NCBI GenBank assembly: GCA_022574595.1 | Contig: JACZRS010000016.1 | Location: 5,589-69,588, forward strand | Source of the DNA: Planctomycetota bacterium | Lineage (GTDB): Bacteria > Planctomycetota > Phycisphaerae > Phycisphaerales > SM1A02 | Reading direction: 5' to 3' | Length of the DNA stretch: 64,000 nt | Notes under the pieces: model-generated | What the model was told of the DNA's origin: nothing | The model's database searches: none | Seen by the model: the letters and a program-made list of their open reading frames with translations, nothing else | Translations under genes and position numbers: made by a program | Part shown: positions 17,229 through 34,072 of the stretch, piece by piece | Layout: every line of letters begins with the position of its first letter | How positions within the stretch are numbered: position 1 is the first letter of the stretch

Positions 17229-17597
17229 ATGTTTTCCCTGCGTTTTCTCATTCCAATATGTGCCTTATTATTGATGTCGAGTTGCGCTTCGCCAACTGCA
17301 GGAGGCTTTGATGCCGCGAGTCCTGGTGCTAGATCTAAGGCAATTCAGACAGCAGCTATAACAGGTGACCGCAGCGCCATACCAAGGATTGTCGAACAAT
17401 TGGATTCTGATGACCCTGCGATAAGAATGTTAGCAATAGAAAGCTTGAAGCGACTTACCGGAGAAACTTACGGATATAAACATTATGATCCAGTCTATGT
17501 ACGCAATGAGGCAATCGCCAAATGGGTCAAGGCTGTAGAGTCCGGATCGGTACCTCAATTGGCTCGTTCACCTGCTGCTTTTAGAGATGCTCCATGA
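17229..17597 (+). CDS. HEAT-repeat lipoprotein
   Basis: lipobox ALLLMSSC; HEAT-like DPAIRMLAIESL; the ORF-track start at 16830 lies antisense inside guaA and is rejected. Confidence 0.45.
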   Translation: MFSLRFLIPICALLLMSSCASPTAGGFDAASPGARSKAIQTAAITGDRSAIPRIVEQLDSDDPAIRMLAIESLKRLTGETYGYKHYDPVYVRNEAIAKWVKAVESGSVPQLARSPAAFRDAP

Positions 17598-18061
17598 CCG
17601 CAATACAAACTAATCCTGTTGTACGACTTGAGATTGCAAGCCAGCCTGAGCTATTGGCAGGTGCACGAGCGCTTATTGCAGCCATGGCCCAGCGCTGCGG
17701 CTTTAACGAAATTATGTGTGGCCAAATTAGCCTTGCTGTGGATGAAGCTCTTTGCAACATCATCAAGCATGGTTACAACTGTCGTGAAGATGAACGAATA
17801 TGGATCAGCATTTCCATCACTGAAACAGAGCCAAAGTCAATCAAGATAATCATTGAGGACACTGCAGATCAGATTGAAGTATCCGAAATACGATCACGAG
17901 ACCTAGATGATGTCAGGCCTGGTGGACTTGGCGTACACATCATCAAAGAAATCATGGATGTAGTAGAATACGAGCATCGCCAACCGCGCGGAATGCGCCT
18001 AACCCTTATTAAGACTAACAAGCCTTCTCAAGCAAGAGAGAACAAAGAGCAGAAAACATGA
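17594..18061 (+). CDS. HATPase_c anti-sigma regulatory factor (RsbW-like Ser kinase)
   Basis: ISLAVDEALCNIIKHGY and GGLGVHIIKEIMD motifs; overlaps the upstream gene by 4 nt. Confidence 0.6.
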   Translation: MTAIQTNPVVRLEIASQPELLAGARALIAAMAQRCGFNEIMCGQISLAVDEALCNIIKHGYNCREDERIWISISITETEPKSIKIIIEDTADQIEVSEIRSRDLDDVRPGGLGVHIIKEIMDVVEYEHRQPRGMRLTLIKTNKPSQARENKEQKT

Positions 18062-18405
18062 GCAATACTCAGCAATTAGAGATCTTTATTGAATCAGAAG
18101 GTGATGCCAAAATTGTCCGTCCCGTTGGTGACATTGATCTCAGTGGTGCGCCAGCGTTGCGTCAACAGATCTCCCAAGCCCAGCAGGAACATCCCACACG
18201 GCTCATAGTGGATCTGTCAGGCGTGCCCTATATGGATAGCTCGGGCCTTGCTACGCTTGTTGAAGCTATGCAAATTGCCCGCCGCAATGATGCTTTGCTA
18301 ATTATCTGCTCATTACAGGACAAAGTTCGTTCGATATTTGAAATCGCTCGACTTGATATGGTATTTAAGATCGCCCAAAGCCGAGAAGATGCGATTTCCA
18401 TGTAA
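18058..18405 (+). CDS. STAS-domain anti-sigma-factor antagonist (RsbV/MlaB-like)
   Basis: LIVDLSGVPYMDSSGLATLVEAM STAS core with the phosphorylatable Ser. Confidence 0.7.
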   Translation: MSNTQQLEIFIESEGDAKIVRPVGDIDLSGAPALRQQISQAQQEHPTRLIVDLSGVPYMDSSGLATLVEAMQIARRNDALLIICSLQDKVRSIFEIARLDMVFKIAQSREDAISM

Positions 18406-18457
18406 TTACTAATAACCAAGAAGATCACAATTCGAAGTTTAAGCTGGATAACTAGTT

Positions 18458-19297
18458 GTGACTGAATCAGCTAAAGAACAAAAACCATCAATCCCAATGC
18501 GCCTGCTAGAACAATGGGGCGATCTGTGGATGCGCACCTTCGACCTTATAGGTGGAGTTTGTTACTTGATTAAAGATGTTGCAATATGGCTTAGAAAAGC
18601 ATTATTCACCAAGCAAGTCAGATTCGGCAGAACCGCACTAGTTACACAATTAGTCCGCACCGGCGTCAAATCTGTAGGCATCGTAATGCTGGTTAGCGGA
18701 TGTATCGGATTCATACTGGCATTGCAGATGAGCCCGCCGCTGGCAAATTTCGGCCAAACCGACAAGATCGCAAACATCGTCGGCGTAGCCATCTTGCGCG
18801 AATTAGGGCCACTCATTGCCGCAATCGTTATGACGGGTTTTGCCGGAGCATCCATCGCAGCTGAACTGGGAACAATGGTAGTGGGAGAAGAAATCGAAGC
18901 CCTCGAAGCCCACGCGCTTAACCCTATAAGATTTCTGGTTGTACCACGCATTTTAGCTACGATCATCGCACTCGTTCTTATCACGGTAATTGGTGATTTA
19001 ACCGGCATATTCTTCGGCGGAGTGATGACGATCGGTTTCCTTGATGTTTCATACGAGCTGTATGTCGCAAATACACTTCAGCAACTTGTGCTAAGCGATT
19101 TCACGACCGGCTTAATTAAAGCCAGTGTATTCGGGCTGATACTTAGCTCCATAGCTTGCTATAACGGCCTAAGTGTGACAGGTGGCGCAGCAGGTGTAGG
19201 CAGAGCAACAACAAGCACAGTAGTCCAGGCCATCGTCGCCATCATTATCGCAGACTTCATATTCACCGCGATTTTCTTCAGCCTCGGCTGGACGTAA
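18458..19297 (+). CDS. mlaE: MlaE-family ABC transporter permease
   Basis: MlaE/Ttg2B topology and conserved VRTGVKS...ALQ motif; no mlaF or mlaD follows it. Confidence 0.7.
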   Translation: MTESAKEQKPSIPMRLLEQWGDLWMRTFDLIGGVCYLIKDVAIWLRKALFTKQVRFGRTALVTQLVRTGVKSVGIVMLVSGCIGFILALQMSPPLANFGQTDKIANIVGVAILRELGPLIAAIVMTGFAGASIAAELGTMVVGEEIEALEAHALNPIRFLVVPRILATIIALVLITVIGDLTGIFFGGVMTIGFLDVSYELYVANTLQQLVLSDFTTGLIKASVFGLILSSIACYNGLSVTGGAAGVGRATTSTVVQAIVAIIIADFIFTAIFFSLGWT

Positions 19298-19513
19298 GTG
19301 GCATTAACTTTTGGATAAGCAGTCCTACCCATGCGGCGATCCCAGCAAAATAACCGGCGCGGCCCGCTTCAACGGGCTGCACAATAATGGCCATCCACCT
19401 TGCGAGCCGGGCCGTCTTAAGGCCGGGAGTGCCTTGTACTCAAAACCTTCTTTAATCCGCAAATTTTTATTGACCAATCCGCCCATCCATGTTCCAATAG
19501 TTGTATCGACTGA

Positions 19514-19717
19514 GTTATCAACTCACGCGGCATACCAGATGTCTGCGAGTCGCCCTGCCCTTGGGATCTTAATGCTGATGGTTCGGTAGGAACTGCGGAC
19601 CTCCTAATCATATTCGCGCAATGGGGTACAGATGGCCCCGCTGACTTCGACGAAAGCGGCGCTGTCGGAACCAGTGATCTACTAATCCTCTTCGCCAATT
19701 GGGGCCCGTGTCCGTAG
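19514..19717 (+). pseudogene. orphan fragment encoding only the dockerin-like C-terminal module (no start codon, no passenger domain)
   Basis: an in-frame TGA at 19511-19513 is followed by VINSRGIPDVCESPCPWDLNADGSVGTADLLIIFAQWGTDGPADFDESGAVGTSDLLILFANWGPCP*; the frame differs from ORF 19311-19589. Confidence 0.5.
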
Positions 19718-19743
19718 AAGAATGTACTAACACGAAAACACCC

Positions 19744-19859
19744 CACCTAGCTAACCAATTAGCGATTTGCATTGTTTAGTTGGCCTCTGAGTCGTTTAAT
19801 TAACGCAACGCTAGAAAATGCGAGCTACGCCCGTGTTTTTCGTGCAGGAATGGATGCTA
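19744..19859 (+). repeat. 116-nt direct repeat, copy 1
   Basis: about 83 % identical to 20183-20298; both copies begin ~30 nt after a stop codon. Confidence 0.7.
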
Positions 19860-19923
19860 GTGGGTGGTGGTTCCAGCGCTGGGCAGTGGGTTGGATTGCA
19901 ATGTGAGGTATAATCGCACAAAG

Positions 19924-20154
19924 ATGCTTGAAGCTGCCATCATCATTGCGTTGATTATCGTCGTCACGGCTACCGTCACAGTTGCGACTGCAGAAACATT
20001 CCGGTATTACCACTGTCCTGAATGTCGCAAGTATTGGGCATTGCGGAAAACAGGGAAAACCAAAGAAGGCCCCTCTCGGCGAAAGAAGGAGGAGTGGAGT
20101 TGTCGTTTCTGTGGTTTAACGGTGTGGAGAGACGAACGCCTTTTAGGTGCATAA
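19924..20154 (+). CDS. small membrane-anchored zinc-ribbon protein (~76 aa)
   Basis: one TM helix (LEAAIIIALIIVVTATVTVATA) then CPEC...CRFC; TATAAT sits 11 nt upstream of the ATG, suggesting a near-leaderless transcript. Confidence 0.4.
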   Translation: MLEAAIIIALIIVVTATVTVATAETFRYYHCPECRKYWALRKTGKTKEGPSRRKKEEWSCRFCGLTVWRDERLLGA

Positions 20155-20182
20155 GCCGCGCGATACTTTCAATATGCCGAGC

Positions 20183-20298
20183 CACCTAGCTACCCCTTTA
20201 GCGATTTGCCATTCCTAGACGGCCTCTGAGTCGTTTAATTGGTTCGACGCTAGAAAATGCGAGCTACACCGGACTTTTTCGTGCTGGAATGGATGCTA
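20183..20298 (+). repeat. 116-nt direct repeat, copy 2
   Basis: see copy 1. Confidence 0.7.
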
Positions 20299-20477
20299 AA
20301 GCAGGCAGGAATACCACAGAAACCATCAAATCATAACACTTGCTGAGAAACCTTCCAGTTAATGGTCTGGCGCGTTAGGATATTGGCGGTTGCCTGGGTG
20401 ACACTTGTCCACAGGGCCGACCACAGACTTGTTGCAGGTGCTACCTCTTCGCGACCTTTATCTTTCAAGGAGGCCCA

Positions 20478-21176
20478 ATGATGTACGCATACTCAGTCTC
20501 AACAAAAAGCTCAGTCGTCGTCGCCGCCGTAATCGCGCTTGTAGTGGTCATAAGCGGGCAGCGCGCCCAGGCCCAGCCCGGCACGGTGCTGTCCCACCAG
20601 AAGATCAGCGACACCCAGGGCTGCTTCACCGGCATCCTGGATGATCTCGACAACTTCGGCGTCTCGGTGGCCTCGCTGGGTGATCTCGACGGCGACGGCG
20701 TGGGCGACTTGGCCGTGGGGGCATACGCGGATGACGAAGGGGGCGGCGGCAATAACAACCGCGGCGCGGTGTGGATCCTGTTCCTCAACACCGACGGAAC
20801 GGTCAAATCCCACCAGAAGATCAGCGACACCCAAGGCGGCTTCAGCGGCGCGCTGGACGATTTCGATTACTTCGGCTGGTCGGTGGCTTCGCTGGGTGAT
20901 CTGGACGGCGATGGCGTGGGCGACCTGGCCGTGGGGGCACGTGGCGACGACGACGGGGGCGGGGACCGTGGTGCGGTGTGGATTCTGTTCCTTGATGGTG
21001 ATCTGCAGACTCCTTGCCCTTGGGATCTTGACAAGAGCGGATCCGTTGGCACAAGCGACCTTCTTGCACTCTTTGCACAATGGGGTACCGCAGGAGATGC
21101 AGACTTTGATGGCGATGGTGTTGTCAATACAGTCGATCTGCTCATCCTCTTCGCCAACTGGGGGCCGTGTCCGTAA
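20478..21176 (+). CDS. secreted FG-GAP (integrin-alpha-like) repeat protein with the dockerin-like ANWGPCP C-terminal module
   Basis: signal peptide; two FGxSVASLGDLDGDGVGDLAVGA FG-GAP repeats; C-terminal CPWDLDKSGSVGTSDLLALFAQWGT...DLLILFANWGPCP. Confidence 0.65.
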   Translation: MMYAYSVSTKSSVVVAAVIALVVVISGQRAQAQPGTVLSHQKISDTQGCFTGILDDLDNFGVSVASLGDLDGDGVGDLAVGAYADDEGGGGNNNRGAVWILFLNTDGTVKSHQKISDTQGGFSGALDDFDYFGWSVASLGDLDGDGVGDLAVGARGDDDGGGDRGAVWILFLDGDLQTPCPWDLDKSGSVGTSDLLALFAQWGTAGDADFDGDGVVNTVDLLILFANWGPCP

Positions 21177-21190
21177 AGTAGCTGCTCACT

Positions 21191-21868
21191 ATGAAGCAAT
21201 TCGCGACTACATTTACATTAATTGTTTTCGTATCACTCGTATTGGCCGGTTGCAAAGTATCTTCGCCGACGGTACACAGTGTTCCGAATAGCCAGCACGA
21301 TCACACTCGTGATGACGCTGATTCGATCTTGCACACACACGAGACATTGCCAGTTCTCTCCAATTGGTGTGATGATTGTAATTTCGGCTATGTCGCGGGG
21401 CAACGAATTTCTTCCAAGGTGCTATTTGAAACGCTCGACGCTCACGGCCACGATGTGAACATTGACGCAATGACCTGCGCGTCTTGCCTTACCGCGTTGC
21501 CTGTGGGCGGCTATTGCGAATCACACCGAATAGGATTCGTCGATAGCAAAGCGTACTTCTCACGCCTGACATACTCGCTAGCTAAAGGAGGCGAGGCTCG
21601 AAATGTTTCAAGCCTTACCTGCACCACTTGCCGCGCTAATGCTCAGGAACACGGGTGGTGCGCCGCATGCCAGATTGGAATGGTGGGCAACGTAGCATTC
21701 AAGAATCGAAATGAATACACAAATGCCGTTGAGCAGTTTTCAATCCTCAAGTCTGCAATAGACAAGACAGGTGACTGTGAGATGTGTGCCAGCGCCATGA
21801 TCCTCGACAGTAGGTGTCCCCTATGCAAGATAAGCTATCAAGATGGACAGCCGATCGCCAATCCCTGA
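21191..21868 (+). CDS. cysteine-rich lipoprotein with six CxxC motifs in a repeated zinc-ribbon-like arrangement
   Basis: lipobox LVLAGC; CDDC, CASC, CTTC, CAAC, CEMC, CPLC; three repeats of CxxC-x8-12-(Y/W/R)C-xx-(H/C)-x-I-(G/S); His-rich N-terminal segment. Confidence 0.5.
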   Translation: MKQFATTFTLIVFVSLVLAGCKVSSPTVHSVPNSQHDHTRDDADSILHTHETLPVLSNWCDDCNFGYVAGQRISSKVLFETLDAHGHDVNIDAMTCASCLTALPVGGYCESHRIGFVDSKAYFSRLTYSLAKGGEARNVSSLTCTTCRANAQEHGWCAACQIGMVGNVAFKNRNEYTNAVEQFSILKSAIDKTGDCEMCASAMILDSRCPLCKISYQDGQPIANP

Positions 21869-22004
21869 CGGCCAAGGATTTCACATGAAACGCCTTTGAG
21901 AATAAAAAAAAAGAAAAAATTACGCAATAATCTTGCAAGTAATAAACTTTTATGGGACATTGTCTATGGCCTAACAAGGCCACCAAATCAAATATAGCCC
22001 ATTC

Positions 22005-22697
22005 GTGGGCTTAGAGGAGTACATCATGCGTTTTTTCAGCCACTCGTTCTGCCGCTCGTTTTTCGCTATTGCGATTGTCGCATCCGCTGCCCCGATCGCG
22101 CTGGCTGGCTCTCATTCCTGGGATATAGTCGAGATTTTCAGCAATGCCGATGGATCCATCCAGTTCATTGAGATGATGGAAACCAACGCAATGCCAAATG
22201 AGATAAACTTGGCAGGCAAGCAGGTCACAAGCAATGCGAATGCCTTTACATTCCCCAGCAACCTTATACCACCCACTACAAACAAGCACTTGCTCCTGGC
22301 TACCGCAGATTTTGCTGCACTGCCTGGTGCGCCTACACCCGACTACATAATCAAAGCTGGCTTCTTTAATCCTAATGGCGATACTCTCATGTATCACACC
22401 TATGACATCTTCAGCTTTGGTCATGACGTATTACCGACTGATTGCATCAACTCACTAAATGGTGATGGTACAACTGGCGTTAACAATCCGGAGAATTACC
22501 AGGATGTTAAAGGAACGGTTGATGCCTGTCCTCCTTGCCCCTGGGATCTTGATGGCACAGGATCCGTCGGCACAGGCGATCTTCTTGAACTCTTCGCACA
22601 ATGGGGTACAGCAGGACCAGCCGACTTCGACGAAAGCGGTGCCGTCGGTACAAATGATCTACTAATCCTCTTCGCTAATTGGGGGCCGTGTAAATAA
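22005..22697 (+). CDS. secreted protein of unknown function with the dockerin-like ANWGPC C-terminal module
   Basis: signal peptide (AIAIVASAAPIALAGS); C-terminal CPPCPWDLDGTGSVGTGDLLELFAQWGTAGPADFDESGAVGTNDLLILFANWGPCK. Confidence 0.55.
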   Translation: MGLEEYIMRFFSHSFCRSFFAIAIVASAAPIALAGSHSWDIVEIFSNADGSIQFIEMMETNAMPNEINLAGKQVTSNANAFTFPSNLIPPTTNKHLLLATADFAALPGAPTPDYIIKAGFFNPNGDTLMYHTYDIFSFGHDVLPTDCINSLNGDGTTGVNNPENYQDVKGTVDACPPCPWDLDGTGSVGTGDLLELFAQWGTAGPADFDESGAVGTNDLLILFANWGPCK

Positions 22698-23031
22698 ATG
22701 AAGGCATCATGGCATCATTGCATCGAGTAAGCCGGACCTGAGGCTTTGTGAAGGTCCGGGTATGAACGACGAGTCATGAGCGGTGCGCCATAAAAGCACC
22801 AAGGCATCATGGCATCGTGGCACTGTGGATTAATGAGCCGTACCGATTACACCTGTCCCGATTCCATCGGGTTCGGTATCGGGATCGGGAATTTCGCTCA
22901 TGATATTTTCATAATTCCTCAGCAATCCCCTTGAGCCTAAACGAATTAGCATATTGTGAAGAGCTATATGTTGCTTTCCGTCAAAGCGGGGTGAAATCCC
23001 TATATCCAATAAAGTTTGATTCGATAGAGAA

Positions 23032-23054
23032 GAGAAGGTGTCTGACACCTTCTC
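23032..23054. repeat. palindrome GAGAAGGTGTC-T-GACACCTTCTC, copy 1, ~15 nt upstream of the RBS of gene 23069-23992
   Basis: 11-bp arms around a single central nt; the 19-nt core recurs at 58634-58652. Confidence 0.7.
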
Positions 23055-23068
23055 CTACCCCTGGAGGC

Positions 23069-23992
23069 ATGGATCATGAAACCACAGGCGTTGGAGCAGG
23101 CGTTCATGCAACTCCCGCGTGCTTCATCGGCGGCACTGCAGGGATATACTGGAATAATCCTGATCCTGATGAAGGATCGCTGCTAGATAAAGGCAGCTTT
23201 GCAACTTGGCAAGCAACAGGTATCAGTGATAGTGGGGGAATAGTTGGCTCTGTTTTTGACCCCGGACCCGATTCGGCTGCATATTGGCCAGATGTAACTG
23301 CCGCGCCAGTTGATATCGGATCAATAGTAGATGGAAATGGCGCTTCATACGCTCAGCGTATAAATAATAGAAATCCTGCAACTGAAGTCATAGCGGCTGT
23401 GGGTTGGAATACTGATTCAATAGGTGTAGCATTGCTGTGGGAATGTACAGGTAACTGTTCGGACCCACTTATGAACAACTGGTCATTTGAAATTCTCGAT
23501 CAGATTTTGTCAACTAACTGTACAGATTGGGATTTACGCCGCGCCTATGATGTAAAAGATGAGACTAGGATCATCGGCTGGGGGAGAAAGTTTGGCCAAC
23601 CCAACACAGAAAATGCTGTAATTCTTGTGCCCCTCGAGTTTTGCTGCATAGCTGACTTAGATGGCAACGGAACTGTCTCGACAAACGACCTGCTCATTCT
23701 CTTCGCCAATTGGGGGCCGTGCCCCGTTTCGCATGGGCCTTGCTGTGCCGACCTGAACAGTGACGGTACGGTGAACACGGAAGACTTACTGATTCTGCAA
23801 GCCAACTGGGGACCGTGCGGCGGTGAATCAGCCGGAGGCGGAGGCGGTGGATCGCCTTCACTTCAGGCAGCGGTCCAGCAATTAGGGTTTCCATCTGTGG
23901 CAGCCCATCAGGCGTGGCTGGCCCAGGCCGGTGAGATGGAAGCATACGTATCTACGTATGTACTCATCACGATTCTTCAAGACCAGGAGTAA
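23069..23992 (+). CDS. hypothetical protein with two tandem half-dockerin repeats (each ...DLLIL.ANWGPC), a Gly-rich linker and a C-terminal tail
   Basis: GGAGG RBS before the ATG at 23069; CIADLDGNGTVSTNDLLILFANWGPCPVSHGPCCADLNSDGTVNTEDLLILQANWGPC; no obvious signal peptide. Confidence 0.4.
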   Translation: MDHETTGVGAGVHATPACFIGGTAGIYWNNPDPDEGSLLDKGSFATWQATGISDSGGIVGSVFDPGPDSAAYWPDVTAAPVDIGSIVDGNGASYAQRINNRNPATEVIAAVGWNTDSIGVALLWECTGNCSDPLMNNWSFEILDQILSTNCTDWDLRRAYDVKDETRIIGWGRKFGQPNTENAVILVPLEFCCIADLDGNGTVSTNDLLILFANWGPCPVSHGPCCADLNSDGTVNTEDLLILQANWGPCGGESAGGGGGGSPSLQAAVQQLGFPSVAAHQAWLAQAGEMEAYVSTYVLITILQDQE

Positions 23993-24032
23993 TCACCACT
24001 GAGCCTATTGATAGGCTTGTTTTTGGCTTCCA

Positions 24033-24064
24033 GGAGCCTCGCAGGGAGGCGAGGCTCCTTTTTT
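24033..24064 (+). terminator. rho-independent terminator
   Basis: GGAGCCTCGC-agggag-GCGAGGCTCC followed by TTTTTT; preceded by a second small hairpin plus T5 at 24002-24025. Confidence 0.7.
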
Positions 24065-24144
24065 CAGTAATTTTGAGATTTTTCATACAAAGCGCGCAGG
24101 ATTTGACAAGAAACGGCGTATAGACCAGTGGAAGTAGAATTAAT

Positions 24145-25803
24145 TTGATTGGCGAGGTATTTGATATGTTCAAAATACGTAAGCGAAACAGCAAGCGAGC
24201 CGGGGCGTTCCCGCCCCGAGTCTCACACAAATTAAGTGCAAGCGTCGCACCCCACTCACTCGCCTTGGGGACAAGGCGGCTCGCCGCCACTTTTCTTGCT
24301 TGTATATGCGTTTGTTCTCTACCCGCAACAGCTCAGTGTCTGCCCGAGGAGCTGCAAAAATTAACAGCATCCGATCCGAGTCTTGGCGACCACTTTGGAA
24401 CTTCTGTTCTAATTCACGGCGATTTGGCAATTGTCGGGGCCGCCAGTGCAAATATTAATCCGCTTACTGCTGGTGCTGCATATACGTATCGCAAGGATCC
24501 CATTACAAACCAATGGATACAGGAGCAAAAAGTATTTTCAGATGATGGTACTTCTTGGGATGGATTTGCACTGTCCATGGCCATCAATCCTGTTGACCCC
24601 AATGTGATAATAATTGGAGCTTGGGCGGAAGATGATGCTCCTGATTGCAAGAGCATATCCTGTCAATCAGGGGCAGCCTATATCTTCCGTTTCGATCCCG
24701 ATCTGGGCCTTTGGATCCAGGAGCAAAAGCTCACCGCTTCCGATGCTGACAGCCAGGATTACTTCGGTTGGGCGGTTTCGATCTGGGGAGATGTTGCAAT
24801 CATTGGAGCTAGACTCGATGAGGATTCGCATCAAGGTAGTGGTTCAGCTTATGTCTTTCGCTATAACTCTAATTCGGGTATTTGGTATGAACAGCAAAAA
24901 CTGATTCCACCAGATCCGGGTGCGCTAGGCACATCTATCTCCCTTAAAGATAATGTTGTTCTAATCGGTGCTTCTGCAGATCAGGAATTCGGACTTGGAT
25001 CAGGTGCAGCTTACATTTACCGCATGGATCCTGACACCCAAATCTGGGCGCTGGAGCAAAAACTTGTGCCAAATGATCCTGTGATAGGAGCTTCATTCGG
25101 TTGGTCTGCTTCTTTGGACGGTAACACAGCCCTCATCGCAGCACCGGGAGCGGATGGCAAACAGTTCCTTGAAGGAGCGGCGTATGTATTTACCTATAAC
25201 GGCCAGCAATGGACACAACAACAAAAACTATTTGCTTCGGATGGCGAACCACTCGATACATTCGGCAGAACAGTCTCCCTAGCAGGTAACGCAGCAGTAG
25301 TTGCTGCTATCTTAGATGAGGTTGATGGACAGACCGTAGGTTCAACTTACATATTCACTTTCGATTCCCAAGAATGGAACGAAACCGCCAAGCTCTATGC
25401 ATCTGATTCTGGGAGATCCGAAGCCTTTGCCTTTGGCACACACGCAGCCACCGATGGCGAGAACGTTATAGTCGGAGCCAACTTCGCGTTCATTGATGGC
25501 CACAACGAAGCAGGAGCTGCATACATCTTCGGCGGACTAGGTGATTGCAACAACAACGGCATAATCGATATCTGCGATATCGCAGATGGCAACGCAACCG
25601 ACAAGAACAACAACGGCTTACCTGATGAGTGCGATCAACCACCTTGTCCATGGGATATGGACAACACCGGCAGCGTCGGCGTCGGCGACCTACTCATGAT
25701 GTTCGCACAATGGGGAACCCCCGGCCCAGCAGATTTTAACAACGACGGCATAGTCAATACATCAGACCTGCTAATCCTCCTAGCTAACTGGGGGCCGTGC
25801 TGA
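24145..25803 (+). CDS. secreted FG-GAP-like beta-propeller repeat protein with the dockerin-like ANWGPC C-terminal module; possible Tat signal
   Basis: TRRLAATFLAC twin-arginine-like signal; at least 7 repeats of FGxSVxxxGDxAxIGA...GAAYxF; C-terminal PPCPWDMDNTGSVGVGDLLMMFAQWGTPGPADFNNDGIVNTSDLLILLANWGPC. Confidence 0.6.
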   Translation: MIGEVFDMFKIRKRNSKRAGAFPPRVSHKLSASVAPHSLALGTRRLAATFLACICVCSLPATAQCLPEELQKLTASDPSLGDHFGTSVLIHGDLAIVGAASANINPLTAGAAYTYRKDPITNQWIQEQKVFSDDGTSWDGFALSMAINPVDPNVIIIGAWAEDDAPDCKSISCQSGAAYIFRFDPDLGLWIQEQKLTASDADSQDYFGWAVSIWGDVAIIGARLDEDSHQGSGSAYVFRYNSNSGIWYEQQKLIPPDPGALGTSISLKDNVVLIGASADQEFGLGSGAAYIYRMDPDTQIWALEQKLVPNDPVIGASFGWSASLDGNTALIAAPGADGKQFLEGAAYVFTYNGQQWTQQQKLFASDGEPLDTFGRTVSLAGNAAVVAAILDEVDGQTVGSTYIFTFDSQEWNETAKLYASDSGRSEAFAFGTHAATDGENVIVGANFAFIDGHNEAGAAYIFGGLGDCNNNGIIDICDIADGNATDKNNNGLPDECDQPPCPWDMDNTGSVGVGDLLMMFAQWGTPGPADFNNDGIVNTSDLLILLANWGPC

Positions 25804-25850
25804 GTTGAAAGTAACCACGCACTAAAGCTTGAAACATAGTATTAAGAAAA

Positions 25851-25878
25851 GGCCGCTTCCGATTGGAAGCGGCCTTAT
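25851..25878. terminator. bidirectional rho-independent terminator between convergent genes
   Basis: perfect 10-bp stem GGCCGCTTCC-gatt-GGAAGCGGCC with A/T runs on both sides. Confidence 0.65.
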
Positions 25879-25902
25879 AATAATTCAAAACTACTAGCGG
25901 TG

Positions 25903-28900
25903 TTACTTGTCGCTATTGGGTTCAAAGAACCTAAACGGGAAAGCGCCTCCGCCACCAATATCATCGGTGTTGTAAATGTAATCTGCATCAAGCGACTTGG
26001 TAATTCGAACTTTCGCCTCACTTAGATGTGCGATGGTGTAAGGATCGACTGTGCGTCCACCATTATTAAGTAGATGCTCAATCTTATCGTTTAGCTCACG
26101 AAGTTTGAAGGTGCTGAGGTTGGCGATGGGTTGAGCGGTTGCGCCAAAGCCTTCATCCAGCATGCTTAGATCAATTAGCCTATTTAAGTGTTCACGCTGC
26201 AAATTACGCCTCAAACTTGAGATCATGGGTTTACGCACGGTGAAACTACTGTCGGGCACGATATCCAATTCTGACCAAATAGCATCAGAAATACCAAAGA
26301 TCACCTCCGGCAATGTCACGGCATCTTCATCTGATGGGATTCTAAATTCCGTGTCATATATGCGGTTAAGCGTAGTTGGATTCATTAACAAAGTTAAGGC
26401 AACGGACTGTATTGACTTAATGCGATCATGCACGGGCCAGGTTGGATCTTCAAAGATCGCCCTGAAGCCACCTTCATCCCACCATTTGTCAACAGTCATC
26501 TTGGCTAAGAGTTCAGAATTCAAACCGTAAGCTTCATCCTTAAAAGCGTTGTCAATAACGAATTGCAATGCGCGACGCTGCTTGGCAGTTTCAACTGGAA
26601 CGACTGGATCGCGCTCACCAGGATCACCTTTACGATCACGATTGACGTATGAGCTACCAAGCCAATTTGCTGCTATTGCGATCGAACCGAAATGCCTTCC
26701 CAGCAGGATTTCATAGGCTTCACGCGCCTTGGCCCAACTGTCACCATCTTTTACGATCTTCTCAAGGATTCTTGTACGAAGATGCTGGGCTATTCTCATC
26801 TGAGAATCAGCATAATCCAGCGGATCCGAACCGTAATCAAATCTACGTGCCAATGGATCTGGACCCCAAGTATCTTCATCAGTTGCGTATGGAAGATTCT
26901 TTTCTGATACACGCTTAAGGATTGGTTTTAGATCCTTGTCAAAGGTGTAACCATACTCGATAGCCCAATAGTCGTAATCGCCTATTGTTACCATGGTGTA
27001 ATCACCTTGCACCGGACCATCATTGAAATTTATATTGATGGGGTTGTAATCCATCACCGAAGCGGTCTGGGCTTTACCCTTAAACTCTTCAGTGTTGATT
27101 TCCTGGATGGAATGGATACTTGAAGCTTTGAAATTGTGACGAAGTCCCAGCGTGTGACCAACTTCATGCATAATAACATCTTTTAGCAATGGGCCTATGA
27201 ATGATTCAGGAACTCCATCAAGAAGTTGGACTTCATCCTTCTTTTTTTCGTCCTTCTTCTTGTCGTCCTTTTCAGCGTCCTCATCATCATCCTCATCCTC
27301 ATTCTCATCGTCTTTGCCTTCACCATCGTCATCTTCATCGTCATCGTCATCTTGTTCCTGAGCAAGCTCAGCGAACCAAGATGGATCAAGGCGATACAAA
27401 GCAATATCCATAGACTTTGCCATGGCTTGCATACAAGCACCGTTTACCTGACTAACTTGGCCATACAATCCATCAAACTGATCATCGCCGAGCAATGTGT
27501 GGTCTACGCTAGCGGCTGGATGCCCACTAAACTCGTTGGAACTGCGCATCGCTCTCTTCATAGCAAGTTCACGAACAACGCCTGACCGCTCTGCTGGTGA
27601 GGCTAGTAGAACGCGCGGATCCCACTGCGGATTATTTTCAAGCCAGGCATAAGTCTGCGGACCGAAGCCTTCCATGGCAATTTCCGGCATTAGCTTCTTC
27701 CAAGTACGCGCCCAACTTGTAATAAACCCTTCATCCATCACAATGTCAGCATCAAAGATCTGGCCAGTTCTCGGATCAACTCTGCTTGGGCCTATTGCGA
27801 ATCCCATTCCTGCGTTGGTCCATAGAACAAAGTTATAGCGCGCATCTTCCGGATCTTTTTCCATATGCGCTTTGCTTCGTGCATCCTGTTGATAAACCTC
27901 AATAGCGTTTATGATACCGATCTTCTCAAATGCCTTGTTCCATTCCAACACACCTTCACGCACCCAACGTCGGTAACGAACTGGAAGAGTGTGCTCGAGA
28001 TAGAAAATTATTGGCTCTTTGGGAGGGCTTAATCGCAGCTTGGTATCTGCTTTTTCAAGCATCCATCGATTTACGTAGCGGACCCAAGGCGTATCAGCAC
28101 CGGGATTGCCGAGATCGCGATGAGTAGTAGTAAAATAGCCAATCCTTGCATCGGCTTTGCGCGACTTGTAACCAGTTTTGTTGGGAATAACGCTTATTGA
28201 ATAATGTATGGTTCCAAATCTTCCGCCACTTAAAGGCAGCTCAAAAGCAATCTCTACATTCTTGGGAAAAGCCTTGGCCTTGGCGATAGTTACTAAATTT
28301 CGGTTTGCGCCCGATAGTATGCGGCTACCAAAGAATTTAGAGCCTTGGCCAATTAGAAGCGCATCCATATCGATAACCGGTCCACCTTTCTTGCCTTTGG
28401 CAATTATTGGCACATCAAGTAGGACGCGATCGGTAAAGACGCGTTCTTTACCTTTTCTAGATTCAAGATCGCCGGTAGTTCTTACTGAAAAGTTTGGCTG
28501 AATCAACGCTATGCGCTTGTCATACTTTTTCCATTTGACGTATTGCGCACCAAACTGAACGCCAGCTGTGGGGATACCTCCGGATACCGTATAGGCAATA
28601 AACAGCAGTTGCTTCTCAAAGTTGCTGGGCAATTCCGCAAGCATTTGCCCGTCTTTCTTGCGTATCCAAAGCGTATAGAGGCTCGCTTGACCGTCGGCTG
28701 TCGATACAACCTTTGTGTAGTCCTTGGCTACATCTTCAAACTTTGGCAGTTCCCCTTTTTTCGAGCTTTTTGCATCAGCCATTTTCTTCATTTGTTCTTT
28801 AATATCTGGAGGCGCACCTCGTTGGCTCATGGCTGAGGTGGTGATCGCTCCAGCAGCTGCAAACGCTATTAACGTGCTTGCTCGACTCCCCAAGATAATA

Positions 28901-28944
28901 CGTTTAATTTTATTGCTCATTGACTTCATGGGAGGCTCCTCCAT
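25903..28944 (-). CDS. secreted zinc metalloprotease (metzincin-like HEVGHTLGLRH motif; resembles the DUF4953/DUF5117 zinc-protease architecture) with a poly-acidic/basic low-complexity linker
   Basis: signal peptide; HEVGHTLGLRHNF zinc-binding motif; DDDDDEDDDGEGKDDENEDEDDDEDAEKDDKKKDEKKKDE insert. Confidence 0.6.
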   Translation of the reverse strand: MEEPPMKSMSNKIKRIILGSRASTLIAFAAAGAITTSAMSQRGAPPDIKEQMKKMADAKSSKKGELPKFEDVAKDYTKVVSTADGQASLYTLWIRKKDGQMLAELPSNFEKQLLFIAYTVSGGIPTAGVQFGAQYVKWKKYDKRIALIQPNFSVRTTGDLESRKGKERVFTDRVLLDVPIIAKGKKGGPVIDMDALLIGQGSKFFGSRILSGANRNLVTIAKAKAFPKNVEIAFELPLSGGRFGTIHYSISVIPNKTGYKSRKADARIGYFTTTHRDLGNPGADTPWVRYVNRWMLEKADTKLRLSPPKEPIIFYLEHTLPVRYRRWVREGVLEWNKAFEKIGIINAIEVYQQDARSKAHMEKDPEDARYNFVLWTNAGMGFAIGPSRVDPRTGQIFDADIVMDEGFITSWARTWKKLMPEIAMEGFGPQTYAWLENNPQWDPRVLLASPAERSGVVRELAMKRAMRSSNEFSGHPAASVDHTLLGDDQFDGLYGQVSQVNGACMQAMAKSMDIALYRLDPSWFAELAQEQDDDDDEDDDGEGKDDENEDEDDDEDAEKDDKKKDEKKKDEVQLLDGVPESFIGPLLKDVIMHEVGHTLGLRHNFKASSIHSIQEINTEEFKGKAQTASVMDYNPININFNDGPVQGDYTMVTIGDYDYWAIEYGYTFDKDLKPILKRVSEKNLPYATDEDTWGPDPLARRFDYGSDPLDYADSQMRIAQHLRTRILEKIVKDGDSWAKAREAYEILLGRHFGSIAIAANWLGSSYVNRDRKGDPGERDPVVPVETAKQRRALQFVIDNAFKDEAYGLNSELLAKMTVDKWWDEGGFRAIFEDPTWPVHDRIKSIQSVALTLLMNPTTLNRIYDTEFRIPSDEDAVTLPEVIFGISDAIWSELDIVPDSSFTVRKPMISSLRRNLQREHLNRLIDLSMLDEGFGATAQPIANLSTFKLRELNDKIEHLLNNGGRTVDPYTIAHLSEAKVRITKSLDADYIYNTDDIGGGGAFPFRFFEPNSDK

Positions 28945-29341
28945 CGGATATTTCTAGAAGCTATGTCGCAGTTAGATGAGCTATTTGATTCGAACTGAGA
29001 CGGGCGTATTCAGAGAACGGGTAACTTGTAACATAACATAAGCATATCAAAGTACTTAATGTGCGTATGAAACCTAGGCCTTGCGGCATGGCATATGCCA
29101 AATATACACGAAGAACCCCATGCGTACACCTACTTTTTGAGGCAGAATGGGTATGTCGAAGGAATAGATTGGTTTGTCAGAGTCATGGTATGAGGTTATC
29201 TGCCATGCTGAAAAGGCGTTATCTAGCTAATCTACCTGTTTCTCCTAATTTCTGCGTGTTTTGCCAGGGTTTTTTGGCTACTTTTATAGGTAATGCCTGT
29301 ATATTTAGCCTACGCTGGTTTCTGGCGGAAGTGCAGTATAA

Positions 29342-31111
29342 GTGCCACATAATGAAATAAAGCTATTAGGAGTGTTCCAAATGCGAATGAGCGTTGGCCT
29401 TATCGGCCTGATTTTGACGGGGGGTTCCTTAGGTTATGTTACAATTGTGGATGCAAACCAAGAGGAAGATTTAGCTAAAATACGCTGGTCTGCGGATATA
29501 CGAGCCAAGCTCGCAAGCGATCTAGCCAAGCAGGTTATTACAACGCCGCAAGATGAACTAATCCCTATCAATATTGAGCTTCAAGATCAGGTTAATCAGA
29601 ACCTAATCGAAGCTAATTCTAATATCCTCGATAAAGCACAAAGACGAGCGGCTGTGATTGCTTTACTAAAAGACCATGCTCAGCTAACCCAGCAAGGTCT
29701 AATTGCAATGCTCAACCAAGAACAAGCTTTGGGCACGGTCAGCCAGCGACTTCGTACCCTGTGGATTGCAAATGTAGTTGCAACCGAGGCCACCCCTGCT
29801 GCAATTTACCGAATTGCCCAGCGAGAGGATATTGCTCTAATCACTATTGATCAGCGATTAGGTAGTGAAATATTCCCAGTTGAACCATTAATCGATAAAG
29901 ATAACGGCAAAGGAGGTGGTGGTGGCAATTCGGGAGGCGATCCACTTACAGGAGCTACAATCGAGTGTGGTGTTCAAAGAATGAGAGCGCCCGAAGTTTG
30001 GAGCGACTTCGGCCTGACTGGTGAAGGCGTAGTCGTAGGCATAATTGATACAGGTTGTTGCATTACTCACCCTGATCTTGAAAACCAAATCTGGAATAAC
30101 CAGGGCGAAATCCCAAACAACGGCGTCGATGACGATCACAACGGTTATGTAGACGATGTTGTCGGATGGAATTTCCAATTTAATAACAATGACATTTCTG
30201 ATACGCACTCACATGGAACACACACCACTGGCAGCGTGGCTGGTGATGGCACAAACGGTAACGCAACAGGGTTGGCACCAGATGTTTCAATGATGATTCT
30301 CGAAATCTGGACTAGTTTCTCAGGCGAAAGCACAGTGTGGGAGGCTATGCAGTACTCTGTTGATAATGGTGCAGATATTATCTCAGTAAGCCTTGGTTGG
30401 CCTCATTTTGCCAATCCAAATAGACAAATGTGGCGCAACATCTGCATTAATACTATTGCAAGCGGTGTTGTTGTTATTTATGCAGCAGGTAACGAAGGTC
30501 TATGCTGCAACTCGCCGCCCGATGAGATTCGAACACCTGGAGATGTACCGGAAATTATTACGGTTGGTGCAACCAATTGCAATGATAATATCGCTGGCTT
30601 TAGTAGTAAAGGACCGGTGACTTGGGAGAACATTTCCCCTTGGTTTGATTGTGCTTATCAACCCGGATGCATGAAGCCAACTATTTCTGCACCTGGTGTC
30701 AATACACTCTCGACTTTAAACAATTGTTCAGGCTATACCACCATGAGCGGTACCTCCATGGCAACTCCACATGTTGCTGGCGCTGTAGCTCTAATGCTCC
30801 AGGCAAATCCCAATTTAGATCACGATGCAATTAAAACAATACTTATGGACACATCTGTTGACTTAGGCACACCAGGCATGGACAACACATATGGTGCAGG
30901 CCGAGTTGATGTTTATGAAGCTGTGCTGGCATCATTTCCTGTTAATGAAGCTGATCTTGATGGCGATGGAGTGGTTAGCACAGCCGATATACTTATTCTG
31001 TTTGCCAGTTGGGGACCATGTGCTGATTGTGGCAACTGCCCAGCGGATTTCGACGGGAATTGTGCAGTTGATACTACTGACTTGCTTTTCCTATTCGCAC
31101 ATTGGGGTTAA
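29342..31111 (+). CDS. subtilisin-like serine peptidase (S8) with a variant dockerin-like C-terminal module
   Basis: catalytic triad motifs VGIIDTG (Asp), HGTHTTG (His), MSGTSMATPHVAG (Ser); C-terminal DLDGDGVVSTADILILFASWGPC...DFDGNCAVDTTDLLFLFAHWG. Confidence 0.8.
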   Translation: MPHNEIKLLGVFQMRMSVGLIGLILTGGSLGYVTIVDANQEEDLAKIRWSADIRAKLASDLAKQVITTPQDELIPINIELQDQVNQNLIEANSNILDKAQRRAAVIALLKDHAQLTQQGLIAMLNQEQALGTVSQRLRTLWIANVVATEATPAAIYRIAQREDIALITIDQRLGSEIFPVEPLIDKDNGKGGGGGNSGGDPLTGATIECGVQRMRAPEVWSDFGLTGEGVVVGIIDTGCCITHPDLENQIWNNQGEIPNNGVDDDHNGYVDDVVGWNFQFNNNDISDTHSHGTHTTGSVAGDGTNGNATGLAPDVSMMILEIWTSFSGESTVWEAMQYSVDNGADIISVSLGWPHFANPNRQMWRNICINTIASGVVVIYAAGNEGLCCNSPPDEIRTPGDVPEIITVGATNCNDNIAGFSSKGPVTWENISPWFDCAYQPGCMKPTISAPGVNTLSTLNNCSGYTTMSGTSMATPHVAGAVALMLQANPNLDHDAIKTILMDTSVDLGTPGMDNTYGAGRVDVYEAVLASFPVNEADLDGDGVVSTADILILFASWGPCADCGNCPADFDGNCAVDTTDLLFLFAHWG

Positions 31112-31157
31112 AGAGTACCAACTAGAGATTCAATTTATTACAGCTTAAAAAATAAGC

Positions 31158-31190
31158 AAAGCCCCGAAAGCAATTTCGGGGCTTTGTTTT
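31158..31190. terminator. bidirectional rho-independent terminator
   Basis: AAAGCCCCGAAA-gcaa-TTTCGGGGCTTT followed by GTTTT; sits between convergent genes. Confidence 0.7.
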
Positions 31191-31211
31191 AAGGTTAAAC
31201 AATCGCGGTGA

Positions 31212-32789
31212 TTAGTTATTTGATCCTTCACTCGAAATCATGCTATCAAGCATAGTGCCGATCAATGCAGTCATTTCAGCAGATTGCGTGCTGGCGCTGC
31301 CATTGGCACTTGGAGAACCACTTATAACCATGACCTTTGGCGTAATATTGATGCCTCGTTCACCAACGATTTTAAGTAATTCAATAAGAGCAGCATTGCC
31401 CTTTCCGATCTGCTCAGCAATAACTCTGTACGCTTCCGCTTGTGCTTCAGATTTTATTCGTATTGCCTCTGCTTCTGCATCTGCAACGATTATGACCTTT
31501 TCTTTATCTGCTTGAGCAATTTGAACTTCGTACTGAGCTGTTGCCAATCGTTTTTCTTCTTCAGCTTCCTGTTCAGTACGCGTCAATGCTTTTCTCTGCT
31601 CTGCTGCGAGTTGCTGCTGCACAAATGTCTTGACTTCTTCATCAGCAATTTGCCTATCTGTTAGCGTCTTGAGCAGATTGTCGAGCGATCCATCCTCAGC
31701 CACACCGGCGATTCGAACGGCGGTGACGGTTACCCCGACCTTGGCCATCTCCTCGACCAGCATCGCCAGTGACTGCGACTCCTGGAGCGACCGCTGGTTG
31801 ACGTAGTCCAAGGCCTTCACCGCCTCGGCGTTGTTGCGAAAGATCGCGCGGACAGCGGAGTTCAGACGTTCACGCAGTTTCTCCCCGTCATCCTCGAAGA
31901 TGGCGACCACGAGCGGCGCGTCGGCAGGTTTGATCTCGTACTCCACGCGCACGTCCACGGGGAAGTCAAACCCATCGGAGGTACGGACGGGAATCTCCCT
32001 TTGCTCGGCTCCTGTGCCGCGTCCTGTGTAACTGATCACCCATTTGGCCGTCGAGATCATCGTTACTTCGTAAGCCTTGGTGTTCAGATAGTACTTCGCG
32101 ACTCCCAGCGGCTCGCGCCAGATACCGCGCTGACCCTTTTCGACCACTTCAGTGGGTGTTTCGGCTTCGCCCGAAAGAACCTCGCCGACATTGGACTTAA
32201 TAACACCTACTGTAGCTTTCTTTACGTTGGTTACGGGCACGATTTCATGTGTAAAAAGCATGGGATTTATACGGTGAGTTCCGGGTTTTAGTACCGATGT
32301 TTGTGGGCCCTTGTAGCCTTTACCTTTGGTTAGAAAGTAATGCGCATCTCCTGCCATTTTACCCCGATCAGCATCATCCCATTCCGGAGCATAGATTTCA
32401 CCCTTGGGAAGAGGCAGTCCATCACTTGCGGTTAGCAGAGCTATTTGACCTTCTTTGATTACAATAACATATGGCGTTTCAATTTCATAAATAAACGGCC
32501 ATAACCATGGATGCCAGCCGGGTGGGAGAATATCAGCTTGTGGCCCCATTTCGCCTTCTGTGGCAATGATTTTACCTGGTGGCAAAGACCCGCCGCCAAC
32601 TGTGCGAATTACAACACCAGTCTGGGCGTCGCCTACATATCTAAAAGAGCTAAGGACAAACGATACTAAAATTACAGCTAAAGCAAGAATTCCACCTCCT
32701 ACTTTTAGGGCTGTTCCAGGTAATTTCATGGCACCTGTTACGATTGCAATTGCCAGAACCAGTCCTACGAACATTACTATTAGTGTCAT
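31212..32789 (-). CDS. flotillin-like SPFH/band-7 domain protein
   Basis: N-terminal TM segments; SPFH core; long Ala/Glu-rich coiled-coil C-terminus typical of flotillin/YqiK. Confidence 0.65.
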   Translation of the reverse strand: MTLIVMFVGLVLAIAIVTGAMKLPGTALKVGGGILALAVILVSFVLSSFRYVGDAQTGVVIRTVGGGSLPPGKIIATEGEMGPQADILPPGWHPWLWPFIYEIETPYVIVIKEGQIALLTASDGLPLPKGEIYAPEWDDADRGKMAGDAHYFLTKGKGYKGPQTSVLKPGTHRINPMLFTHEIVPVTNVKKATVGVIKSNVGEVLSGEAETPTEVVEKGQRGIWREPLGVAKYYLNTKAYEVTMISTAKWVISYTGRGTGAEQREIPVRTSDGFDFPVDVRVEYEIKPADAPLVVAIFEDDGEKLRERLNSAVRAIFRNNAEAVKALDYVNQRSLQESQSLAMLVEEMAKVGVTVTAVRIAGVAEDGSLDNLLKTLTDRQIADEEVKTFVQQQLAAEQRKALTRTEQEAEEEKRLATAQYEVQIAQADKEKVIIVADAEAEAIRIKSEAQAEAYRVIAEQIGKGNAALIELLKIVGERGINITPKVMVISGSPSANGSASTQSAEMTALIGTMLDSMISSEGSNN

Positions 32790-32964
32790 GGCCCACTCCT
32801 TTTTGTTTTTAATAACATTAACTGCGCACCCACAAACAGCGCATCGAACTATTACTGGTAGCTACTTTACATTACTAGTGATAATAGGCTCGATATTGTC
32901 AACCTATCATGTCCTTTGCAACTTATTCCAAGACATGAAAACTATGTTTTAGGTTACTAAGGCC

Positions 32965-33991
32965 TCATTTAGGAGCTTTGGCGTTCTTACCTCGTGCTTT
33001 AAGGCTCTTGGCCAAATTGCCTAGATCCTTAGCATCAATTTTCTTGGACACTTCCTTGATCAGCTTGGTAAATACCTCAATCTCTTGATCGGTGAATGGA
33101 TAACCAAGATTCTTGCCATTCATACGGTAGCTATCAGCTATGGTTTTTCCCTGGGAATCTAGGACTGCGAACCATGGGATACCGCCTTCCTTACCCTTTG
33201 TTAGCCGCTCGTGCAATACTTTACCCTGCAATGTACGGTCAACGTCAATTTTTACTGATACAAAATTTTTCGCAAATATCTTTGTAACCTCAGTGTCGGC
33301 CATCCAATCCTCAAAGCGATGACACCAAAAACACCATGGAGCGCCAAAGTGAACAAATACCATTTTGTTCTGTTTCCTCGCCTGATTAATAGCTGTGGCA
33401 AGTAACGATTCTGCATCTAGGTAGGGAGCCTGATTCTGGCTAAGAAAGTTAAGAACACTAATTGGATCATGTTCTGTTTTACCTTCGATCTTTGATTCTA
33501 ATGAGCCAGTTTCCTGGTTTGCAATAACTTGCCCATCAGCATCGAGGATTGTGAGAAAAGGTAAGCCGTTGGCTTTTGGATCAACTTTGTATTCTTCAGC
33601 AATGTCCAGATTCTTATCAAATCTACCTACATCTATCAGCACTAGATCATATTCATACAATAGCTTTTTGCGTACATCTTTATCTTTTCCAAATGTTTCA
33701 TGAAGCAGGCGACACCAGCCGCACCAATTGGCGCCCCCATTGGATAAGTACGCGCCTGTTTTCCTTCTTGGCTTTGGCTAATGCATCATTGATTACCTTG
33801 CGCGCATCTGCGGACTCATCATAAATATCCTTGCGCTGTTTCTTTACCTGTTTTTGTGTTGCCTTTTCTTTAGTTGCTTGACGTGCAGGCTTGGTATCAG
33901 TCTGCTCCTGAGCAATGCTTGTCGAGCTAAAGCTCATGGACACGATGATAATACTGGCGAACAATAGGGATTTCATGACTTGTCCTTTCAA
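32965..33991 (-). pseudogene. secreted tandem thioredoxin-fold protein disrupted by a +1 frameshift in a C5/G5 homopolymer (or an assembly error)
   Basis: ORF 33698-33991 gives signal peptide ...RRVLIQWG; the next frame continues ANWCGWCRLLHETFGKDKDVRKKLLYEYDLVLIDVG..., joining ORF 32965-33660, which holds a second FGAPWCFWCH domain; the frames meet at the CCCCC run 33734-33738. Confidence 0.5.
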
Positions 33992-34072
33992 TCAATGCAC
34001 ATATTAAGCACACGCTATATCCGAGCATTATATCAGAGGAAATGGATTCGTAAGCATAAATCCCATTAGCTC

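Follow-up and report, generated by a model that had tools for sequence, protein, structure and literature searches.

In all intact dockerin structures examined by Slutzki et al. (2013; PMC3821032), an 'intramolecular clasp' connects positions -3 to -1 with the C-terminus, and breaking this clasp destabilises the calcium form and weakens cohesin binding. The known clasps are non-covalent, being formed by the pairs Trp-Pro, Trp-Tyr, and Glu-Arg, or by Tyr-Lys in the case of 2Y3N, and a cysteine or disulfide clasp is not mentioned in that work (PMC3821032). For Phycisphaerae, a 'planctosome' has been proposed, in which dockerin-bearing peptidases dock on cohesin proteins, the complex being anchored by a lamin-tail-domain protein that carries a cohesin (Andrei et al. 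2019; PMC6461901). The present study deals with a stretch of 64,000 nucleotides (nt) of contig JACZRS010000016.1 from a planctomycete of the order Phycisphaerales, referred to as the window in the following, and with a mostly Cys-framed two-repeat module found at the C-termini of unrelated proteins encoded there. According to its predicted structure, this module is very probably a dockerin, and its outer Cys pair is best read, by analogy, as a covalent version of the dockerin clasp.

Module Copies in the Window

In total, eight copies of the two-repeat C-terminal module were detected in the 64-kb window, six of them residing in intact genes and two representing non-coding remnants (19514-19717 and 13358-13510). 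The copies are classified by four Cys positions, namely C1 before loop 1 ('CPW'), C2 after helix 1 ('WGxC'), C3 before loop 2 ('CPAD'), and C4 after helix 2 ('WGPC'), with a dash for each cysteine that is missing. The genes and remnants are the following:

13358-13510, minus strand: eighth copy, non-coding, which follows the TAA of gene 13511-15229 without a gap and in the same frame
13511-15229, minus strand: secreted repeat protein in which residues 448-513 form a choice-of-anchor Q domain (NF041518, 31.6 bits)
19514-19717, plus strand: remnant copy, an orphan module with no start codon and no passenger (118 bits to the profile described below)
20478-21176, plus strand: small FG-GAP repeat protein (PF01839, 52.3 bits) with signal peptide and C--C module (21006-21173)
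22026-22697, plus strand: signal peptide, lamin-tail-like immunoglobulin (Ig) sandwich, and C--C module (22527-22694)
23069-23992 (gene 22931), plus strand: passenger of no assigned family and internal CCCC dockerin (23636-23833; PF00404, 27.7 bits, above the gathering score)
24166-25803, plus strand: seven-blade FG-GAP_2 propeller (PF14312, 280.9 bits, seven stretches) with signal peptide and C--C module (25636-25800; 110 bits)
29381-31111, plus strand: subtilisin-like S8 protease (PF00082, 193.8 bits) with -CC- module (30935-31108; Dockerin_1, 23.9 bits)

An earlier note on this DNA had listed seven near-identical modules. A regular-expression census of the six-frame translation found the module at all seven places and at no further place; however, the copy at 19514-19717 turned out to belong to no gene, and the eighth copy had been missed. 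A profile built from the seven copies and run against the six-frame open reading frames (ORFs) of the window scored these copies at 88-118 bits (E 1e-26 to 1e-35), including 100.9 bits for the C--C module at 13514-13687 in the gene 13511-15229. All remaining ORFs stayed below 6 bits, the sole exception being the new eighth copy at 13358-13510 (52.5 bits, E 2.9e-15). The five 'consensus' (C--C) copies share 61-80% identity at the protein level and 59-75% at the DNA level, and about half of the identical residues among them are encoded by different codons. They are regarded as old paralogues under purifying selection, because protein identity exceeds DNA identity and many codons differ. That the modules stem from a recent gene conversion, or from a duplication in the assembly, was considered as well and rejected in view of the many synonymous differences.

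Both remnants bear traces of larger coding units. At 19514-19717, CPW is preceded, at a distance of 12 codons, by a TGA in the same frame, no ORF of at least 40 amino acids (aa) starting with ATG, GTG, or TTG is present, and the gene callers used on the public contigs skipped the place; similarity to the 'NGIPDxC' linker of intact homologues reaches up to and through the stop. From its sequence, this copy is read as the 3' remnant of a lost gene. The copy at 13358-13510 reads ...ANWGPCP, stop, YILHRDGIINEADLIQLLSEWGQCDSCCLADLDVNGSVNTSDLLLFFSSWN, stop, the gene's own module starting with 'CPWDLHADG', and the stop occupies the Trp position of the second 'CPW'. Its appearance is that of the latter half of a once tandem dockerin, cut by a nonsense change. 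A related locus of another genome (L085, 8484-10315) echoes these remnants: there, a 104-aa ORF consisting of the module alone shares 4 nt with the end of a 506-aa gene, and the module is split from its passenger by a frameshift that is either real or a long-read error. Near the orphan module, within a 1.2-kb 'empty' interval, a 96-aa ORF (19864-20154, plus strand) for which the public contigs have no gene call encodes a transmembrane stretch and a CxxC...CxxC zinc-ribbon-like motif.

Predicted Fold and Family Membership

The AlphaFold (AF2) model of the module at 21006-21173, based on a 127-sequence alignment, reached a predicted local distance difference test (pLDDT) value of 95.1 and features helices at residues 16-24 and 42-50, as well as a bridge that connects loop 1 to the C-terminal tail. 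In the Foldseek comparison with the PDB, the best match was the Bacteroides cellulosolvens dockerin 2y3n_B (template modelling (TM) scores 0.85/0.79, root-mean-square deviation (rmsd) 1.2 Å, 30% identity), followed by type II dockerins of Clostridium thermocellum and the NagH dockerin of Clostridium perfringens (2ozn_B). Both loops of each C--C copy (five copies) retain the calcium-ligand pattern D-x-[DNH]-x-[DSTN]-G-x-[VIA]-x-x-x-D. Each of the eight copies has two calcium loops and two helices, with degradation of loop 1 confined to 13358-13510. On the basis of the model, there is little doubt that the module has the dockerin fold, and the dockerin-like character with two calcium-loop repeats that had been proposed for it agrees with the fold match and with the Dockerin_1 and EF-hand matches.

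Family models give a graded picture. The Pfam model PF00404 (Dockerin_1; gathering score 22.9 bits) matched six of the seven copies first listed with 16.9-32.8 bits, and its gathering score was reached by two of the seven, namely gene 22931 (27.7 bits for the whole protein, 32.8 bits for the module) and the S8 module (23.9 bits). For the lamin-tail-like copy, no Dockerin_1 match was obtained, but only a weak match to EF-hand_6. The sole NCBIfam match of the window modules is NF041540, the 'GC-type dockerin domain-anchored protein' (dockerin_GC; curated cutoff 29 bits), and the alignment to this model runs from the first Cys (profile position 1) to the final Trp (63 of 67), the remaining positions providing space for the terminal G-x-C. 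For ten relatives from other genomes, NF041540 was again the only NCBIfam match, with 14.6-29.3 bits, one four-Cys member reaching the cutoff (29.3 bits). No publication using the name 'GC-type dockerin' was found. Judged by these sequence matches, the module is a divergent, under-annotated branch of Dockerin_1/NF041540, a family that is already curated, and it represents an expected variation on a well-known fold rather than a new principle. The suspicion that the module belongs to an existing, poorly characterised family was therefore well founded, NF041540 being its sole and consistent NCBIfam relative; the novelty that the earlier note implied was overstated, since curators have already modelled this family of thousands of proteins.

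Cysteine Pairs and the Predicted Clasp

The four Cys positions occur in a limited number of combinations, which were counted in two samples:

110 C-terminal modules from other genomes: -CC- 62, C--C 14, none of the four (----) 11, CCCC 10, CCC- 8, other or mixed 5
207 modules from protein hits: -CC- 21, C--C 90, none of the four 1, CCCC 69, CCC- 7, other or mixed 19

In Fisher tests on these counts, which ignore phylogeny, C1 and C4 were found to co-occur with odds ratios (OR) of 77 and 41 in the two samples, and C2 and C3 with OR of infinity and 825. The association of C1 with C2 and of C3 with C4 was negative. Since the cysteines are gained and lost in the pairs C1/C4 and C2/C3, disulfides C1-C4 and C2-C3 are predicted. 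Just a few residues separate C2 from C3, and C4 and C1 are their equivalents by the internal two-fold pseudo-symmetry of the module; furthermore, C1-C4 pairing is consistent with the bridge that the model shows between the tail and loop 1. The covalent-clasp reading follows from the location of the motif CPW...WGPCP at the clasp positions. The clamp formed by cysteines, as suggested beforehand, thus gains support from the co-occurrence of the pairs, and it is placed where classical dockerins have their non-covalent clasp. If true, a disulfide-stapled dockerin would represent a ready-made, stable docking tag and, at the same time, a test of the intramolecular clasp idea.

Other details of the earlier description did not hold. 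The cysteines are not invariant, as the S8 module lacks both outer Cys residues and the module of gene 22931 starts with CCIAD. The S8 module, described as 'reordered', is a complete two-repeat dockerin of the -CC- subtype, and the tandem 'half-modules' of gene 22931 (23069-23992) form one complete two-repeat dockerin of the CCCC subtype, both subtypes being common elsewhere. In the S8 module, the linker between the repeats reads 'WGPCADCGNCPADFDGNC' and the protein ends with WG. The corresponding linker motif WGxCxxCxxCPADxxxxC, together with an NWG or HWG end, was found in 26 of 115 related C-terminal modules; the four cysteines packed into this linker and the second calcium loop could form two local disulfides or a metal site.

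Distribution, C-Terminal Position and Export

Phycisphaerae planctomycetes are abundant degraders in marine and freshwater systems. A word-indexed profile search returned 2,128 clusters, the named ones among them originating from Planctomycetota or Phycisphaerales metagenome-assembled genomes (MAGs). In an exhaustive profile search of 1.84 billion representatives, 38,014 proteins were obtained at E ≤ 1e-3 and 6,733 at E ≤ 1e-10. The former number overstates the family and the latter is safer, because the loose set also holds generic dockerin or EF-hand-like repeat proteins, for example one with 18 stretches (P0121). Species-representative genomes were also scanned with one narrow DNA pattern, yielding at least 134 confirmed sites, almost all of them in Phycisphaerae or Planctomycetota MAGs, several of which harbor at least 5-10 loci each.

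In the ORFs obtained from other genomes, the end of the module was the last residue in 107 of 125 cases and lay no more than three residues from the stop in eight more (115/125). The module was not at the extreme C-terminus but internal in the remaining ten ORFs, and tandem copies also occur. By a hydrophobicity heuristic, a signal-peptide-like N-terminus was present in 76 of 96 complete module ORFs (79%), compared to 103 of the 576 other ORFs in these loci (18%; OR 17, p 6e-32). A lack of such enrichment had been named beforehand as the outcome that would speak against a sorting or anchoring tag; the opposite was observed. Within the window, five of the six intact carriers have a hydrophobic, signal-peptide-like N-terminus, among them the gene 13511-15229. 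The description of the module as a portable C-terminal unit is borne out by these 115 ORFs and by the diversity of the Pfam passengers.

The module tags at least thousands of secreted proteins of Phycisphaerae, most of which are annotated as hypothetical because their scores fall just under the curated thresholds. If the models NF041540 and Dockerin_1 were widened, a large secretome would become annotated in one step.

Proposed Function and Alternatives

As the best reading, which we consider somewhat more probable than not, the module would allow exported passengers to dock, in a calcium-dependent manner, on a receptor whose gene lies elsewhere. According to this proposal, Sec-exported planctomycete proteins would each carry a C-terminal dockerin-fold domain of 53-60 residues, composed of two calcium-binding F-hand repeats, each consisting of a loop and a helix. 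A disulfide formed by C1 and C4 would tie the N- and C-termini of the domain together, as the covalent counterpart of the classical clasp, and an optional second pair (C2/C3) would close the linker between the repeats. The diverse passengers would then be docked non-covalently, and the receptor would belong either to the cell surface or to a secreted complex. The docking function within this reading is given roughly even chances.

Several observations weigh against the docking reading. As already stated in the earlier note, no cohesin is recognisable in the window: Pfam Cohesin (PF00963) was not found in any of its ORFs of at least 150 aa, 35 ORFs having been compared with Pfam. Likewise, no cohesin was present among the precomputed Pfam matches for about 100 genes around module genes at nine other loci, which cover about 100 kb. 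Five of the seven copies remain under the Dockerin_1 gathering score (four of them at 16.9-21.2 bits), and NF041540 scored five copies at 16.6-21.5 bits against its cutoff of 29, two copies giving no match. The C1-C4 disulfide is predicted from co-occurrence, in counts uncorrected for phylogeny. The export test relied on a crude hydrophobicity heuristic instead of SignalP, and one carrier (23069-23992) has no detectable signal peptide.

The lack of a cohesin in the window and at the loci examined would fit a module that functions without any protein receptor, be it as an end-cap stabilised by calcium and disulfides, as a binder of a ligand other than a protein (cell-wall polysaccharide, exopolysaccharide, or mineral-bound calcium), or by self-association. 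The many paralogues per genome, with at least 5-10 loci per MAG for one narrow DNA pattern, point in the same direction. Peer and colleagues are said to have noted, in 2009, that many genomes have dockerin-like modules but no cohesins. However, positions on the helix surface are conserved across paralogues with unrelated passengers, T42 being invariant and the DLL-x-L-[FL]-A-N-W face being kept, and this conservation suggests a shared binding surface. Moreover, every experimentally studied dockerin fold that matches the module model is cohesin-bound. Function without a receptor is judged unlikely.

In another interpretation, the module would act as a C-terminal signal for sorting or secretion, comparable to the C-terminal domain (CTD) of the type IX secretion system (T9SS), PEP-CTERM, or MYXO-CTERM, and would be recognised by a dedicated export or attachment machine and possibly removed, or else covalently attached through the terminal Cys. 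The extreme C-terminal position in 115 of 125 ORFs and the signal-peptide enrichment of the carriers speak in its favor, as does the name of the nearest NCBI model, which includes 'domain-anchored protein'. In the gene 13511-15229, furthermore, the module directly follows the choice-of-anchor Q domain, a family named for its occurrence upstream of alternative C-terminal anchors. By contrast, the module is an autonomous dockerin fold with intact calcium loops, and has neither a transmembrane helix with basic tail nor a beta-sandwich CTD. Internal copies (23069-23992 and 10 of the 125 ORFs) and tandem copies weigh against a cleaved sorting signal; in addition, no NCBIfam sorting-signal model was matched and no sortase- or exosortase-like gene was seen in the window. 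A sorting tag and a docking tag cannot be separated by sequence. A sorting signal of this kind appears rather improbable.

A further candidate is offered by a neighboring gene that carries no module:

21191-21868, plus strand: Cys-rich and His-rich lipoprotein with four CxxC...CxxC/H knuckles, a conserved DxHGH, and the lipobox LVLAGC

In each of the seven genomes examined (the window and six others), this gene, with 37-47% identity, lies beside the gene of the lamin-tail-like dockerin protein, and in one of them (L088) the lipoprotein is fused to an AhpC-TSA/T4_deiodinase thioredoxin-fold domain. It is a candidate for a receptor or a folding helper. In the former case, the Cys-clasped dockerins of Phycisphaerae might not be cohesin ligands, but parts of a separate surface-display system with the lipoprotein as candidate non-cohesin receptor, which we regard as a long shot.

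Least of all, the repeat might be an artefact of low complexity, chance similarity, or assembly duplication; one suspicious assembly junction is indeed present in the window, but this explanation has practically no chance left, being already refuted by the profile scores (88-118 bits versus a background below 6 bits), the differences at many synonymous sites, the recovery of the same genes in independent assemblies, and homologues numbering in the thousands.

Passengers of the Module

The passenger domains are unrelated, as the earlier note had put it, and comprise FG-GAP, FG-GAP_2 (seven stretches), Peptidase_S8, and choice-of-anchor Q domains, according to Pfam and NCBIfam. In the product of 13511-15229, a Chlam_PMP repeat was additionally seen with 18.5 bits, which is under the Pfam cutoff of 20.6. 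The product of 22026-22697 (223 aa) belongs to a conserved family of approximately 225-aa proteins with 541 homologues, one of which is 100% identical to it ('hypothetical protein IH984_13735 [Planctomycetes bacterium]'). Its passenger gave no Pfam match at E ≤ 5. The corresponding model (pLDDT 91.8) shows an Ig-like sandwich as passenger (22026-22544), for which the nine top PDB matches are eukaryotic lamin tail domains (probability 0.95-1.0, TM 0.48-0.59, rmsd 4-5.6 Å); the dockerin 2y3n_B was also among the PDB matches of this model. Downstream of this gene, two groups of direct repeats with a period of 8 nt (GGCATCAT-like) were noticed at 22690-22733 and 22790-22833, about 92 nt apart in the intergenic region. 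The product of gene 22931 (23069-23992) continues for about 60 aa after the module; no signal peptide was recognised in it by hydrophobicity, and none is supplied by upstream or alternative frames.

Assembly Integrity

The suspicious junction mentioned above concerns the following segment:

24539-24779, no strand assigned: 241-bp segment identical in two paralogous FG-GAP_2 genes, at which the match of the window changes from one public scaffold to a second

Scaffold_15 in ENA (ERZ23499034) is identical to window positions 11191-24779 and then diverges into TPR and ASPIC genes, whereas scaffold_9 of the same assembly is identical to 24539-42789, except for three differences near 27.8 kb. To the left of the shared segment, scaffold_9 has approximately 85-90% identity to the window at 23836-24538 and is unrelated further left. 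The end of an independent k141 contig falls within the shared segment, at 24679, 140 nt from the start of that segment. Because the scaffolds switch at this segment, the window joins two paralogous FG-GAP_2 loci, and either the window or the ENA scaffolds are mis-joined, or a real recombinant between the paralogues is present. The S8 protease and the metalloprotease may therefore not be neighbors of the cluster at 19.5-25.8 kb, and the view of 19.5-31.1 kb as a single contiguous accessory region has become doubtful, given that two scaffolds meet at 24539-24779. On scaffold_9, the module is likewise found at the end of the next two gene products, an FG-GAP_2 protein of 733 aa and an LVIVD protein.

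Other Features of the Window

A small secreted protein encoded at 35849-36376 (minus strand) has a tail, 'IPAPGAFAGLAMLGLLTRHRRRRAA', resembling PEP-CTERM or MYXO-CTERM, and had been taken for a PEP-CTERM substrate that would indicate a coexisting second sorting system. This assignment could not be upheld: no PEP-CTERM model (TIGR02595/PF07589) was matched at E ≤ 0.05 in NCBIfam and E ≤ 5 in Pfam, the MYXO-CTERM score was 14.4 bits compared to a cutoff of 20, and the window contains no exosortase.

The first part of the window (1-8000) has a G+C content of 0.55-0.57, compared to 0.44-0.50 in most of the remainder, and encodes PCMT, an 825-aa protein with a weak spermidine-synthase-like match, PadR, and a 579-aa protein of no assigned family. 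At 58927-59679 (plus strand), an AbiGi-like protein (abortive-infection antitoxin family) is encoded among housekeeping genes.

Comparison with Known Systems

The closest described family is NF041540. A Cys at the start and Gly-x-Cys at the end, as read from its profile alignment and its name, are also found in the five C--C copies and the CCCC copy of the window, and are absent from the S8 copy. Like the members of NF041540, five of the six intact window genes carry the domain at the C-terminus of otherwise unrelated proteins; however, the window modules are shorter than the NF041540 profile by about 12 positions.

Cellulosomal type I and type II dockerins (PF00404; 2Y3N chain B, 1OHZ chain B) share with the window modules the same predicted fold, with a duplicated calcium loop and helix, and the C-terminal placement on secreted enzymes. 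They differ in their surroundings, the window passengers being propellers, a protease, a choice-of-anchor Q protein, and a lamin-tail-like protein, without glycoside hydrolases. Furthermore, the window modules are Cys-framed, the host is a Gram-negative-type planctomycete, and no cohesin was found. A dockerin fold that assembles secreted non-cellulolytic enzymes is known from NagH/NagJ of C. perfringens (2OZN), chain 2ozn_B being among the matches of the module model; there, however, the partner is known and is a cohesin, whereas none was found for the window modules.

The planctosome, the only framework published so far, shares the Phycisphaerae-lineage setting with the window, in which a dockerin-bearing S8 protease and a lamin-tail-like protein are both encoded. 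However, the lamin-tail-like protein of the window bears a dockerin, with no cohesin seen, and the planctosome is itself only a hypothesis.

With respect to the intramolecular clasp, CPW...WGPCP of the window modules stands exactly at the clasp positions. As in the Trp-Pro clasp of Ruminococcus flavefaciens ScaA, a Trp on the N-terminal side (CPW) and a Pro on the C-terminal side (GPCP) are kept. The known clasps are non-covalent, whereas the Cys pair of the window modules predicts a covalent one.

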